From assembly GCF_044324875.1 (NCBI RefSeq), contig NZ_CP172185.1: a stretch of 64,000 nt of DNA; one strand, written 5' to 3'. This document shows, piece by piece, positions 52,331 through 59,315 of this stretch. Under the pieces are notes generated by a model. The model did not search any database and was not told the DNA's origin. It worked only from the letters and a program-made list of their open reading frames with translations. Numbering within the stretch: position 1 is the stretch's first letter; each line of letters starts with the position of its first letter. The position numbers were made by a program, and so were the translations under genes. Origin of the DNA: Escherichia coli (GTDB taxonomy: Bacteria > Pseudomonadota > Gammaproteobacteria > Enterobacterales > Enterobacteriaceae).

Positions 52331-52620
52331 GGTTCTCTCCCTAAAAATCTGTCTGGCAGGGTAGCGATTTGTGCGTATTGTCACGATTGAGATTTTTTAA
52401 GGTGAGAGGAAATTGATAACTTGTAGTTATGTGAAATCGCTATTTTCTGTAGCGTAGATGCATTCTTCTGACTTCTTGTCTGAGAAAATGCATAAGAAAA
52501 AATAGGTTAAAATTGAGGGGTGGAAAAGAAAGGTGCAATGTTTAGCCATTGTGTTCACCGCACCTGGACTTTGGCTTACGCATCGGGTATCTCAATCAAC
52601 AAAAGAGTTTTTAGTTTCTG

Positions 52621-53445
52621 CTATTTCTTCTCTGTAATTTTTACACTGTTTTCCAACTGCTTGATGCTGACCTGCGGGGTCGGCAACTCCTCAGGCATGG
52701 TTCCGCCAAGTTCCTGAATGGTTTGCCTCACCTTGCTACCCACGTCAAAGTGTGTGGTATTAGCTTGCTGTTTTGAATTCACGCCATCCCGCTTGAGTTT
52801 TTCTTCTGTTTGGGTAGCTCGAAAGAGATTAGCCGCCAGTTCTGTTGAACCCATATGATCCAGGATCTTCTGACTCTTTTTCAGCCCCTTCCGCTGATGG
52901 ATGGCTTTCTGATCTAATCCACCATACAGCCCCCGGTAACCATGATTCTGAAATATGGCGAAATCGATAGCTGTCGCTACCCCAGCTTGCTGCGCTGCCT
53001 CAACTAATTGTTTGTTATGTTCTTTCAACTCATTTCTCAGAAAAAGACGCTTTTCGTCTTCACGAAGTTGCCTGAAAGCTTCATCGTCAGCCAGCTCCTG
53101 TCGTCGGGTCTGGATAGCAAAATAAGTTTGCCCTGCCGCAATAACCGGTTTCGCAGGGTCGCCGTTTTGTACTACCAGGTAACAGGCATAGCGGGAGAGT
53201 ACGATGTCTTTTAATGCTCTTTTGGCATTTGAGCCAATTTTGACCATATCGAGGATCTCCTCGAAATGGTCATCAATTGTGTGACCACTATTCAGACAAG
53301 CTTCTTTGGCGCGCGTTAATACAGGTATAAAGTGACGATACTCTGAATAACCCAGTAGTTTCCCAAGTTGTCTTGCTGACCATTGTTCTGCTCCGTTTGC
53401 ATTAATCAGCTTTATCTCTTCAAAAGGTTGATGATGTTCGTTCAT
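52621..53445 (-). CDS. dinD: DNA-damage-inducible protein D
   Basis: 274 aa from MNEHHQPFEEIKLINANGAEQWSARQLGKLLGY... Confidence 0.9.
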   Translation of the reverse strand: MNEHHQPFEEIKLINANGAEQWSARQLGKLLGYSEYRHFIPVLTRAKEACLNSGHTIDDHFEEILDMVKIGSNAKRALKDIVLSRYACYLVVQNGDPAKPVIAAGQTYFAIQTRRQELADDEAFRQLREDEKRLFLRNELKEHNKQLVEAAQQAGVATAIDFAIFQNHGYRGLYGGLDQKAIHQRKGLKKSQKILDHMGSTELAANLFRATQTEEKLKRDGVNSKQQANTTHFDVGSKVRQTIQELGGTMPEELPTPQVSIKQLENSVKITEKK

Positions 53446-53665
53446 TGCCCACTCCATGTGATATCGATTGCAAGGAAAGTAAGTCTACAACTGTGTTTAT
53501 ATACAGTTGTGAGTATCTCACGTTCTCACTGCGCTGGGCAAAAAAACATCGCAAAATCTGGAGCAGGCACGCAAAACAGAATTGAATGTTGCGGGGAAGA
53601 AAAATGCCGCTCTGTTTTAGTGGCGGCATTTGTGAAGGCGGAAAAGTAAGAATTGGCGTTACGAG

Positions 53666-54529
53666 TTACTCGATATTCTGGATCTGCTCGCGCATCTGCT
53701 CAATCAACACTTTCAGCTCAATCGCGGAGTTTGTCACTTCGGCATTGATAGACTTCGACGCAAGAGTGTTCGACTCGCGGTTGAATTCCTGCATCATAAA
53801 GTCCAGACGACGACCAACGGCTTCTTTTTTCTTCAGAATGTTGTAGGTCTCTTTGACATGCGCTTCTAGGCGGTCCAGTTCTTCGGCAACGTCAATTCGT
53901 TGTGCCAGCAGAACCAACTCCTGCTCCAGACGGTTGTTTTCCAACTGAACCTGAGCATCTTCCAGCTTCGCGACCAGACGCTCACGCTGCCATTGCAGGA
54001 TTTCCGGCATATGGGCGCGGACTTTGACCACTTCGGCGGTGACGCCTTCCAGACGCTGCTCGATCAATGCTTTCAGCGCCTGACCTTCGGTTTCGCGCGC
54101 GACGATAAAGTCGTCCAGCGTACCATCCAACGCCGCGAGAATTTCAGCGGCAATCGCGTCGAGATCCTGCTCCTGGGCTGCCATCACGCCCGGCCAGCGT
54201 AGAATATCAACCGGGTTGATTTCCCCTTCGTCACTCTGCATTTTTACCCAGTTCGCGGCAGTTACCAGCTGTTTAGCCAGTTTTTCGTTGAGGATCAGCT
54301 CACCTTGTGCGCTAACATCTGGTTCATAGCGCAGGGTACATTCCACTTTACCGCGCGTCAGGCGAGAACGAATACGCTCGCGAACGACAGGTTCAAGGCT
54401 ACGGAACTGCTCCGGCAGACGAAAGTAAGTTTCCAGATAACGCTGGTTTACCGAGCGCATTTCCCAGGTTGCGCTCCCCCATTCACCCTTGATTTCACGC
54501 CGGGCGTAGGCGGTCATACTGCGGATCAT
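53666..54529 (-). CDS. yicC: YicC-family stress-induced protein
   Basis: 287 aa MIRSMTAYARREIKGEWGSATWEMRSVNQRYLE... Confidence 0.9.
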   Translation of the reverse strand: MIRSMTAYARREIKGEWGSATWEMRSVNQRYLETYFRLPEQFRSLEPVVRERIRSRLTRGKVECTLRYEPDVSAQGELILNEKLAKQLVTAANWVKMQSDEGEINPVDILRWPGVMAAQEQDLDAIAAEILAALDGTLDDFIVARETEGQALKALIEQRLEGVTAEVVKVRAHMPEILQWQRERLVAKLEDAQVQLENNRLEQELVLLAQRIDVAEELDRLEAHVKETYNILKKKEAVGRRLDFMMQEFNRESNTLASKSINAEVTNSAIELKVLIEQMREQIQNIE

Positions 54530-54655
54530 AGACGTTCCTGTTTATAAAAGGAGAGGTGGAAGGATTATAGCCATCGATGCCTTGTCAGGATAGGAATAAC
54601 CGCCGGAAGTCCGTATAATGCGCAGCCACATTTGTTTCAAGCCGGAGATTTCAAT

Positions 54656-55372
54656 ATGCGTCCAGCAGGCCGTAGCAATAATCAGGTGCGTCCCGTTACC
54701 CTGACTCGTAACTATACAAAACATGCAGAAGGCTCGGTGCTGGTCGAATTTGGCGATACCAAAGTATTGTGTACCGCCTCTATTGAAGAAGGCGTGCCGC
54801 GCTTCCTGAAAGGTCTGGGCCAGGGCTGGATCACCGCAGAGTACGGCATGCTGCCACGTTCTACCCACACCCGTAACGCGCGTGAAGCGGCGAAAGGTAA
54901 GCAGGGTGGACGCACCATGGAAATCCAGCGTCTGATCGCCCGTGCTCTTCGTGCGGCAGTAGATTTGAAAGCGCTGGGTGAGTTCACTATTACGCTGGAC
55001 TGCGACGTGCTTCAGGCTGATGGTGGCACGCGTACCGCTTCGATTACGGGTGCCTGCGTGGCGCTGGCAGATGCGCTACAGAAGCTGGTGGAAAACGGCA
55101 AGCTGAAAACCAACCCGATGAAAGGGATGGTAGCCGCAGTTTCTGTCGGGATTGTGAACGGCGAAGCGGTTTGCGATCTGGAATACGTTGAAGACTCTGC
55201 CGCTGAAACGGACATGAACGTGGTGATGACTGAAGACGGGCGCATCATTGAAGTGCAGGGGACGGCAGAAGGCGAGCCGTTCACCCATGAAGAGCTTCTC
55301 ACCTTGTTGGCGCTGGCCCGAGGGGGAATCGAATCCATTGTAGCGACGCAGAAGGCGGCGCTGGCAAACTGA
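54656..55372 (+). CDS. rph: Ribonuclease PH, full length (no K-12 rph-1 frameshift)
   Basis: 238 aa from [16 protein letters not shown]... to ...[13 protein letters not shown]. Confidence 0.95.
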
Positions 55373-55377
55373 TTTTT

Positions 55378-55406
55378 AAGGCGACTGATGAGTCGCCTTT
55401 TTTTTG
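55378..55406 (+). terminator. pyrE attenuator hairpin in the rph-pyrE intergenic region
   Basis: AAGGCGACTGATGAGTCGCCTT followed by a T8 run, 6 bp after the rph stop and about 30 bp before pyrE; known UTP-sensitive attenuator position. Confidence 0.75.
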
Positions 55407-55437
55407 TCTGTAGAAAAGTAAGATGAGGAGCGAAGGC

Positions 55438-56079
55438 ATGAAACCATATCAGCGCCAGTTTATTGAATTTGCGCTTAGCAAGCAGGTGTTAAAGTTTGGC
55501 GAGTTTACGCTGAAATCCGGGCGCAAAAGCCCCTATTTCTTCAACGCCGGGCTGTTTAATACCGGGCGCGATCTGGCACTGTTAGGCCGTTTTTACGCTG
55601 AAGCATTGGTGGATTCCGGCATTGAGTTCGATCTGCTGTTTGGCCCTGCTTACAAAGGGATCCCGATTGCGACCACTACCGCCGTGGCGCTGGCGGAGCA
55701 TCATGACCTTGACCTGCCGTACTGCTTTAACCGCAAAGAGGCAAAATACCACGGTGAAGGCGGCAATCTGGTTGGTAGCGCGTTACAAGGACGCGTAATG
55801 CTGGTAGATGATGTGATCACCGCCGGAACGGCGATCCGCGAGTCGATGGAAATTATTCAGGCCAATGGCGCGACGCTTGCTGGCGTATTGATTTCGCTCG
55901 ATCGTCAGGAACGGGGGCGCGGCGAGATTTCGGCAATTCAGGAAGTTGAGCGTGATTACAACTGCAAAGTGATCTCTATCATCACCCTGAAAGACCTGAT
56001 TGCTTACCTGGAAGAGAAGCCGGAAATGGCGAAACATCTGGCGGCGGTTAAGGCCTATCGCGAAGAGTTCGGCGTTTAA
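55438..56079 (+). CDS. pyrE: Orotate phosphoribosyltransferase
   Basis: 213 aa from [29 protein letters not shown]... Confidence 0.95.
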
Positions 56080-56115
56080 AGAAACTCGCCGGATGAAAAG
56101 TCATCCGGCGTCATA

Positions 56116-56712
56116 TTACTGCAACTGTGCGGCAATTAGCGGCCAGCGGGCGTCAAAATCATCCGTCGGGCGGTATTTAAACTCGCTGCGGACAAAGCGT
56201 GACAGCATACCTTCACAGAAGGCCAGGATCTGGCTTGCCAGCAGGGTTTCATCGGTGGTGTAACCTTCACCCTCACGCATTCTCTTTTCGCGCAATACCT
56301 GACGCAACTGCGCTTCAATACGCTCGAACAGCTGGTTGATGCGCCCTTGCAGGCGATCCTGTTCAAACATTAGTGCATGACCAGTGAGGATGCGAGTCAG
56401 GCCAGGATTACGCTCACCAAAACCGAGAAGCAGCAACACAATCAGACGCAGGCGCGCTGTGGTGTCCTTCTCATCTTTCAGAATCAGATTGATGCGAGTA
56501 ATCAGGCTATCTTCGATAAACTCAATCAGGCTATCGAACATGCGGGTCTTACTGGGGAAGTGGCGATACAGTGCCGCTTCGGAAACGCCGACAGAGGCGG
56601 CCAGTTTTGCCGTCGTGATACGTTGGCTTCCATCGCTGGATTCCAGCATCAGCGCCAGAGACTGAAGTATTTCCTCGCGACGGTTCCTTTTCGCAGTTTG
56701 TTTTTCTGCCAT
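56116..56712 (-). CDS. slmA: Nucleoid occlusion factor SlmA (TetR family)
   Basis: 198 aa from [24 protein letters not shown]... Confidence 0.95.
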
Positions 56713-56818
56713 GTTACAAAATACCCCTGAAAATAAGCACTTGCCAGGCGGCACCCACGCTATGACCGCAAACGAAATGTTTGCGGCTATGTTATGACGT
56801 TATTCGGATGCGTATGTG

Positions 56819-57277
56819 TTACTGACGACCAGAGTGACCAAAGCCGCCTTCACCGCGGTCGGTGGCGTCGAAATCTTCCACCAGATTAAATTCAGCCTGT
56901 ACTACCGGAACAAAAATCATCTGGGCGATGCGTTCACCAGGTTGAATGGTGAAGCTGTCCTGACCACGGTTCCACACGGAAATCATTAACTGGCCCTGAT
57001 AGTCGGAATCGATCAATCCTACCAGGTTACCAAGCACGATACCGTGCTTATGTCCCAATCCGGAGCGCGGCAGCATCATTGCCGCCAGTGAAGGATCGGC
57101 AATATGAATCGCCAGCCCGGTCGGAACCAGCGTAGTGTCACCCGGAGCCAGTTCTACGGCGTCGTCGAGACAGGCACGCAGGTCAAGTCCGGCAGAGCCA
57201 GAGGTGGCATAAGTCGGGAGCGGAAATTCCTTCCCAACGCGCGGGTCCAGAATCTTAACGTCGATTTTTTTCATCAT
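56819..57277 (-). CDS. dut: dUTP diphosphatase
   Basis: 152 aa [36 protein letters not shown]...; the true start may be the second Met. Confidence 0.95.
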
Positions 57278-58475
57278 AACGGGTCACGATCTCGTCGAGT
57301 AATAATTGGCCAAGGAGCTCTTTGCGCTCAAGCGGTAAGACTTTATCTCCGTCCTGCCAGAAAAGGTGTAATGCGTTGTTGTCGCTGTTAAATCCTTGAG
57401 TTGGCTGGGAAACATCGTTCGCGCAGATCAGATCAAGGTTTTTACGGATACGTTTTTGCCGGGCGTATTCTTCCACATTATTTGTTTCGGCGGCAAATCC
57501 AACGACGTAGGGTCGATGGTCTTTTAGTGCGGCAACGCCTGCGACGATATCGGGGTTTTTAACCATTTTTATTGTTAATTCATCACCCTGCGTGGCCTGC
57601 TTTTTGATTTTTTCTGGGGCCACGGTAGCTGCGCGATAATCCGCCACGGCGGCGCAACCGATAAAAATATTTTGCTGCTGTACAGAAGCATTCACGGCGG
57701 CTTCCATTTCCAGCGCGGTCATCACATCAACACGTTTAACAAACGGTGGCGTCGGTAGTGAAACTGGACCTGATACCAGCGTGACGTTCGCGCCACGACG
57801 GGCAGCAGCGGCGGCGATAGCAAAACCCATCTTGCCGGAGCTGTGATTAGAGATATAACGCACCGGATCGAGCGGTTCACGCGTCGGGCCGGCGGTAATC
57901 ATAATGTTCAGATGTTTCAGGTCGTTGACGGGCGAAAAATGCGCTACTGCCATATCCACAATGGTTAACGGATCGAGCATTCGCCCAGGACCGATATCAC
58001 CACAAGCCTGACTGCCACTGTCTGGCCCCCAGATGAGCAAACCACGGGAAGCAAGCACCTCTAAATTATGCTGCGTGGCAGCGGCACGGTACATCTGCTG
58101 GTTCATGGCGGGGAGCACGGCTACAGGCGCAGGTGTAGCCAGACAAATCGTCGATACCAGGTCATTCGCCATTCCGGCAGCAACACGGGCAATCAAATCT
58201 GCCGTGGCAGGGGCGAGAATCACTAAATCAGCCCATTTACCCAGCTCAATATGGCCCATAGCGGCTTCGGCTGCCGGGTCCAGCAAACTGTCGGAAACGG
58301 GATAACCAGAAACCGCCTGCAAGCTAAGTGGGGTGATAAAGGCTTTTGCCGCTTCGGTCATGGCTACGCGGACGTCGGCCCCGCGATCGCGCAAACGACG
58401 CACCAGTTCAGGGGTTTTATAGGCAGCAATACCGCCGCTGACGCCGAGAACGATTTTTTTACCGGCCAGGCTCAT
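57255..58475 (-). CDS. coaBC: Bifunctional phosphopantothenoylcysteine decarboxylase / synthetase
   Basis: 406 aa from [28 protein letters not shown]...; 3' end overlaps the dut start. Confidence 0.95.
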
Positions 58476-58646
58476 GATGATTTTTCCTGTTTGGTGACAC
58501 CAGAAGTTGGCGATTTTATCACAATACTTTTGTTGTCGTGCCTTCACCTGAGAATCACTTTGCGAGGCGCTTTCCAGGATTGAAAACTGGCCGTCGATTT
58601 AACGGAACGGCTATGACAGGATGCGAGCACCACAAAGGAGGTGAAG

Positions 58647-59315
58647 GTGAAAAACAATTCACAGCTGTTGATGCCGCGCGAAAAAATGCTGAAGTTTGGT
58701 ATTAGCGCCTTAACGGATGTCGAGCTGCTGGCGCTATTTCTGCGTACCGGAACGCGCGGTAAAGATGTATTAACCCTGGCAAAAGAGATGCTGGAGAATT
58801 TCGGCTCTCTTTATGGCTTGTTAACCTCTGAATATGAACAATTTAGTGGCGTTCATGGAATTGGCGTGGCGAAATTTGCCCAGTTAAAGGGGATTGCTGA
58901 ACTGGCGCGGCGTTACTACAACGTGCGGATGCGTGAAGAAAGCCCTTTACTCAGCCCGGAGATGACGAGGGAATTTTTACAAAGCCAGCTCACGGGTGAG
59001 GAGCGGGAGATCTTTATGGTGATCTTTCTCGACTCCCAACACCGGGTTATAACGCATAGCCGCCTTTTTTCCGGCACGCTAAACCATGTTGAAGTCCATC
59101 CTCGGGAAATTATCCGCGAAGCGATAAAAATAAATGCCTCGGCGCTGATCCTTGCACATAATCACCCTTCGGGTTGTGCTGAACCCAGTAAAGCGGATAA
59201 ACTCATTACTGAACGGATAATAAAGAGTTGTCAGTTCATGGATTTACGCGTGCTCGACCATATCGTGATTGGGCGTGGAGAGTATGTTTCTTTTGCCGAA
59301 CGCGGCTGGATTTAA
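58647..59315 (+). CDS. radC: RadC-like JAB-domain protein (YicR, UPF0758)
   Basis: GTG start after a GGAGG SD; product [35 protein letters not shown]... with HNHPSG JAB motif. Confidence 0.85.

Follow-up and report, generated by a model that had tools for sequence, protein, structure and literature searches.

The rph-pyrE locus and its surroundings

We analysed a stretch of 64,000 nucleotides from the Escherichia coli contig NZ_CP172185.1, referred to here as the window, with positions counted from its first base. The locus under study has the gene order yicC (minus strand), rph and pyrE (both plus strand), slmA and dut (both minus strand), which is the order found in annotated genomes. The following features were identified.

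54614–54619, plus strand: TATAAT hexamer, a possible −10 element of an rph-pyrE promoter, read from the sequence
54656–55372, plus strand: rph, full-length RNase PH (238 aa and TGA), from the open reading frame, profiles and the AF39 annotation
54815–54817, plus strand: rph codon 54, CTG (Leu) in place of the CAG (Gln) of other genomes; the A>T change at 54816 gives Rph Q54L, from alignment
55322–55326, plus strand: run of five G, the site of the one-base deletion of K-12 rph-1, intact here, from alignment
55341–55343, plus strand: TAG, out of frame in the window and the premature stop in rph-1 strains, from the MG1655 stop mapped onto the window
55370–55372, plus strand: TGA stop codon of rph, 5 nt 5′ of the attenuator stem
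55378–55399, plus strand: pyrE attenuator hairpin with a 9-bp stem (5 G-C pairs) and a GAUG loop, from the terminator scan and folding
55398–55405, plus strand: T8 tract of the attenuator, whose first two T also pair at the stem base, from the sequence
55425–55430, plus strand: GAGGAG Shine-Dalgarno of pyrE, 7 nt before the ATG, read from the sequence
55438–56079, plus strand: pyrE, orotate phosphoribosyltransferase (213 aa and TAA), from the AF39 annotation and profiles
55747–55749, plus strand: pyrE codon 104, TAC (Tyr) in place of the GAC (Asp) of other genomes; the G>T change at 55747 gives PyrE D104Y, from alignment
56087–56110, no strand assigned: 10-bp G+C-rich hairpin between the convergent pyrE and slmA, from the terminator scan of the minus strand

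The rph frame opens with ATG at 54656 and closes with TGA at 55370–55372 (717 nt, 238 aa), and its coordinates are those of the annotated rph in AF39, the closest complete genome (L001 1617–2333). The sequence-only reading had described a full 238-aa protein ending in ATQKAALAN, and the open reading frame, its translation and the AF39 coordinates all agree with it. The product scored 378.6 bits against the NCBIfam RNase PH equivalog TIGR01966 (cut-off 141.5) over its full length, with residues 2–236 aligned to profile positions 1–235 of 236, and it carries both Pfam domains, RNase_PH and RNase_PH_C. Its best match among solved structures was RNase PH of Pseudomonas aeruginosa (1R6L, E-value 3.5e-103). 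Thus, by profile score, Rph is a member of the RNase PH family, with a predicted phosphorolytic 3′-exoribonuclease activity. PyrE scored 236.6 bits against NCBIfam TIGR00336 (cut-off 106.8), carries the Pfam domain Pribosyltran and is identical at 211 of 213 residues to the E. coli orotate phosphoribosyltransferase (OPRTase) 1ORO (E-value 1.9e-137).

A consensus promoter scan found no site upstream of rph and none in the rph-pyrE spacer, and its only match, at 55955 inside pyrE, was within chance expectation. The TATAAT hexamer at 54614–54619, which lies 36 nt upstream of the rph ATG in a region identical to MG1655, could tentatively be the −10 element of an rph-pyrE promoter; it went unreported by the scan because it has no good −35 hexamer. 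At the other end of the operon, the hairpin at 56087–56110 has a T-rich tail only on the minus strand (the slmA side), with no clean T run on the plus strand, and is probably a terminator shared by pyrE and slmA. Within slmA, at the equivalent of window position 56133, the sister strain L011 (Logan SRR25551183) has a private C>A change, by which the SlmA segment PLIAAQLQ, encoded by the common allele that the window carries, becomes PLISAQLQ.

AF39 was 98.97% identical to the window over 27784–64000 and was not collinear with it before 27784. No complete E. coli genome exceeded 99.0% identity over 39001–64000, and short segments such as rph-pyrE reached 99.9% identity to single genomes despite the value of at most 99.0% over 39001–64000. 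The interval 39001–64000 has the appearance of a mosaic produced by recombination, in a lineage with few complete genomes. Positions 1–25000 of the window, likewise not collinear with AF39, were 99.8% identical to a region of the avian pathogenic E. coli BEN2908, which encodes family 31 and 32 glycoside hydrolases, MFS transporters, OmpG-family porins, LacI regulators and IS66/IS3 elements. We take this part of the window to resemble AGI-3, the selC-associated carbohydrate-uptake island of BEN2908.

The attenuator and the rph-1 comparison

The hairpin at 55378–55399, AAGGCGACU-GAUG-AGUCGCCUU, runs directly into the T8 tract at 55398–55405. Folding of the 34-nt segment alone gave a 9-bp hairpin of −14.7 kcal/mol, compared with −3.5 ± 1.8 kcal/mol for the shuffled controls (z −6.2), and none of the 200 shuffles was as stable; the stability of the hairpin is therefore far beyond chance. 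The same hairpin formed when a 101-nt context was folded. The rph stop is separated from the stem by the spacer UUUUU; pairing begins after 5 nt with an A-U pair, and the first G-C pair comes after 7 nt. The distance of 6 bp from the stop, as first read from the sequence, was thus right within 1 nt. The interval then given to the locus ended at 55406, one base beyond the T run. The whole rph-pyrE spacer measures 65 nt, of which 32 nt lie between the T run and the pyrE ATG. Rfam has no curated family for the rph-pyrE attenuator, and the only match in a scan of 54300–56400 was a chance one, in which the terminator reached 24.5 bits for RyhB, below the gathering score of 55.

Alignment to MG1655 over 1,571 bp showed 34 substitutions and one indel. 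The indel lies in the G run at 55322–55326, where the window has GGGGG and MG1655 has GGGG (in context, CGAGGGGGAATC in the window and CGAGGGGAATC in MG1655). In MG1655 the annotated product is a ‘truncated RNase PH’ of 228 aa ending in ARGESNPL, and its stop precedes the wild-type stop by 29 nt, at a distance of 34 nt from the attenuator stem. This is rph-1, the K-12 allele that was reportedly described by Jensen in 1993. The same alignment was searched for a frameshift near the 3′ end of the window rph, and none was present; together with the TIGR01966 score, it bears out the earlier statement that rph is intact here, unlike in K-12. The window is thus from a non-K-12, rph+ E. coli, and the rph-1 allele is absent.

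From 55323 to 55604, a segment that includes the attenuator, the leader, the Shine-Dalgarno and the start of pyrE, there was no difference from MG1655. In addition, 4,557 of 5,424 complete E. coli genomes showed an identity of 99% or more over the 97 bp at 55344–55440 (end of rph, attenuator and start of pyrE), and the description of the attenuator as canonical therefore holds. Compared with K-12 rph-1 strains (MG1655, W3110 and BW25113), the locus is the same and the attenuator identical, and the differences are the GGGG run, the 228-aa product and the earlier stop, along with the low pyrE expression that is a feature of K-12. Compared with the rph+-pyrE operon of E. coli, everything is shared in terms of genes, order, 65-nt spacer, hairpin, T8, leader and 238-aa frame; there is no difference in the regulatory region, and only coding changes are seen, namely Rph Q54L, PyrE D104Y and the commoner PyrE E199K. 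The last of these (codon 199, window position 56032) is Lys (AAA) in the window and Glu (GAA) in MG1655 and Nord58; AF39 also has Lys, and E199K is therefore an ordinary polymorphism.

Of the 5,426 complete E. coli genomes, 5,424 had a single copy of the rph-pyrE locus. An rph-1-type allele, searched for with a 48-mer that has the K-12 GGGG run at its centre, so that the 28-base megablast word must span the run, was found in 169 of the 5,426, and among the 40 records listed almost all carriers were K-12 laboratory derivatives (for example MG1655, W3110, BW25113 and J53). An intact rph followed by the attenuator is thus normal for the species, being found in about 97% of complete E. coli genomes, and K-12 departs from it; the arrangement itself is already known as the textbook wild-type rph-pyrE. 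With rph-1-type alleles nearly confined to K-12 lines, the earlier view that the locus serves mainly as a strain-background marker is sustained.

One of the genomes with the contracted run is not of K-12 descent. In strain 2015C-3101 (NZ_CP027221.1), from human stool, the G run at locus positions 915–928 goes from five to four as in rph-1; rph is annotated there as ‘frameshifted’, and the gene has the non-K-12 alleles A138 and T216. This may be a natural event like rph-1 that arose independently, or else an error in sequencing the homopolymer.

Predicted control of pyrE by translation of rph

The spacer between rph and pyrE is the place of the UTP-sensitive, translation-coupled intercistronic attenuator that Poulsen, Bonekamp and Jensen are said to have described in 1984. 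A ribosome footprint reaches about 12–15 nt downstream, and the rph TGA, which ends at 55372, is near enough to the stem, which starts at 55378, for a terminating ribosome to cover the 5′ arm. Following the model established for K-12, rph would be translated to its natural stop at 55370–55372, and 5 nt further on the transcript could form the hairpin and U8, an intrinsic terminator ahead of pyrE. At low UTP, RNA polymerase would be slowed at the U-rich stretches, with the ribosome that ends rph close behind it; this ribosome, at the stop codon, would hold the 5′ arm of the hairpin, since the stem begins only 5 nt past the stop, so that the terminator could not form and pyrE would be transcribed. 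When UTP is ample, polymerase would run ahead, the hairpin would form, and most transcripts would end before pyrE. In rph-1 strains, the ribosome would stop 29 nt earlier, short of the hairpin, and pyrE would be under-expressed, a defect that the window does not share. The leader attenuator of pyrBI follows a like logic, in which the formation of an intrinsic terminator is decided by how far, depending on UTP, polymerase is ahead of the ribosome; it differs in that the shielding ribosome is on a short dedicated leader peptide, and in rph-pyrE it is at the 3′ end of a full-size enzyme gene.

Two papers (PMC2784333 and PMC5933015, citing Jensen 1993 and Bonekamp et al. 1984) report that the one-base rph deletion of K-12 lowers the levels of orotate phosphoribosyltransferase, that pyrE expression varies with the distance between the rph stop codon and the attenuator loop, and that laboratory evolution repeatedly selects an 82-bp deletion that brings the rph stop beside the loop. 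These reports bear on another reading of the hairpin and T8, by which they would be only a constitutive terminator of rph, with pyrE expressed from a promoter of its own. By sequence the structure does resemble any intrinsic terminator; however, only 32 nt are available between the T run and the pyrE ATG, the promoter scan found no site there, and the phenotype of K-12 changes with where the rph stop lies (rph-1, and its suppression by the 82-bp deletion), according to PMC2784333 and PMC5933015. Therefore pyrE must be transcribed through the attenuator site in K-12, and we consider a separate pyrE promoter to be highly improbable.

Observed directly in this analysis were an unbroken rph frame, the location and the stability of the hairpin with its T8 tract, and a regulatory region identical to that of K-12 and of most E. 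coli. Since 55323–55604 is identical, the regulatory region is the one studied experimentally in K-12, and from this identity normal attenuation in the window strain, as the sequence-only reading had it, would be a reasonable expectation; ribosome shielding, UTP dependence and the resulting pyrE level are what we infer for it. Nothing in the sequence argues against the reading of the locus as a wild-type operon. We thus hold, with high confidence, that this is the wild-type rph-pyrE operon of a non-K-12 E. coli with an intrinsic terminator ahead of pyrE.

Missense alleles of Rph and PyrE

Within 54540–56110, the window differs from AF39 at two bases only, 54816 and 55747, and both changes alter a protein. 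Rph Q54L and PyrE D104Y, which the sequence-only reading did not mention, were found in none of the 5,426 complete genomes. The search used 55-mers centred on each variant, so that any 28-base word includes it; the control with the common base matched 5,423 genomes for Q54L and 4,914 for D104Y.

As both alleles are single-base transversions and occur in no complete genome, they might be sequencing or assembly errors in a locus that is otherwise fully standard. On the other hand, the short-read assembly Logan SRR31072984, which is independent of the window, matches it at 100% over 52438–59079 with both alleles included, and Q54L recurs in many unrelated assemblies. Both changes are therefore most likely real, and an error at these sites is very unlikely. 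Over 39001–64000, 90 positions differed from all four reference genomes, many of them spaced by multiples of three. We considered whether artificial or erroneous changes are scattered in the window and rejected this, as the spacing fits natural third-codon-position polymorphism and SRR31072984 is identical across the locus.

Outside the complete genomes, the exact Q54L form of Rph was found on 152 public contigs, indexed in 288 blocks of the collection. It occurs on two rph DNA haplotypes, one K-12-like (in L010) and another shared by the sister strain L011 and the window, which points to recurrent mutation or to recombination. Position 54 is Q in the solved RNase PH structure of P. aeruginosa, G in that of Bacillus subtilis and K in that of Aquifex. 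Q54L is a lineage marker. It replaces a polar by a hydrophobic residue in the conserved KG-x-G-x-GW segment and is missing from all 5,426 complete genomes, and one could thus suppose that Rph is full length yet impaired, with the strain RNase PH-deficient in behaviour; however, a variant that persists and circulates on so many contigs and on both haplotypes, at a position where Q, G or K is found among the solved structures, is probably tolerated, and we regard such an impairment as quite unlikely.

In the case of D104Y, a collection of about 15 billion proteins had the exact sequence on only 3 public contigs, one of them a 5,752,694-bp chromosome (WP_395762549.1, XJR45535.1). The sister strain L011, which differs at 2 of 6,717 bases, has the ancestral G at 55747, and D104Y is thus recent and private to the strain. 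The change falls in the catalytic loop of PyrE (residues 99–109), between K103 and H105. In an alignment of 150 diverse homologue representatives, the residues of this loop were conserved as follows.

R99: present in 149 of 150
K100: present in 149 of 150
E101: present in 144 of 150
K103: present in 148 of 150
H105: present in 145 of 150
G106: present in 147 of 150
G109: present in 147 of 150

The window PyrE keeps all near-invariant residues of the loop (R99-K100-E101-x-K103-x-H105-G-E-G-G109), with Tyr at 104. Within the conserved core of the loop no column varies more than 104, with D in 98 of the representatives, T in 16, A in 13, N in 8, S and Q in 4 each, E in 3, K in 2, and P and H in 1 each; no aromatic residue was found there among the 150. 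One paper (PMC10087573) describes residues 99–109 as the highly conserved OPRTase catalytic loop and reports that acetylation of K103 cut the activity by about 96%. Searches of the literature for studies of OPRTase Asp104, covering Lys103 and the loop, OMP synthase and His105, and the text of PMC10087573, found none.

The regulation of the operon could accordingly be wild type and its output nevertheless impaired, if D104Y weakens orotate phosphoribosyltransferase: a bulky aromatic residue between the catalytic K103 and H105, in a mobile loop whose closure covers the PRPP of the neighbouring subunit, could disturb that closure. The allele is absent from the 5,426 genomes and from the sister L011 and is known on 3 contigs; its flanking residues K103 and H105 are near invariant, no aromatic residue takes its place in the 150 representatives, and the loop is one in which the acetylation of K103 costs about 96% of the activity (PMC10087573). 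Against this, the variability of column 104 means that the side chain is unlikely to be essential, and this tolerance would argue against a severe effect of D104Y; moreover, mutations as recent as this are mostly nonsynonymous simply by chance, and L011 itself has a private change, from A to S, in SlmA. We consider an operon of normal regulation and weakened output to be unlikely, though it is the most plausible of the alternatives to an ordinary operon. A meaningful pyrE defect from D104Y would be a minor possibility.

If D104Y does impair PyrE, the strain would be partly pyrimidine-limited, with its attenuator chronically de-repressed, and it might excrete orotate or tolerate 5-fluoroorotate. 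That the change partly disables OPRTase, so that a natural isolate is pyrimidine-limited despite a wild-type attenuator, possibly under selection such as that for resistance to fluorinated pyrimidine analogues, seems to us rather doubtful. Should D104Y prove to be such a hypomorph, it would parallel the pyrE deficiency of K-12, by way of the enzyme and not of rph-1 polarity.

We retain the reading of the locus as a wild-type rph-pyrE operon, which matters little beyond strain typing, where it places the window in a non-K-12, rph+ E. coli. Since the window is rph+, the pyrimidine limitation of MG1655 and W3110 should not apply to it. A full-length rph and a canonical attenuator are by themselves no proof of normal pyrE output or enzyme activity, and the activity may differ despite normal regulation because Q54L and D104Y are present. 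As neither is found in any of the 5,426 complete genomes, these two alleles are very specific markers, far more so than rph+ status.
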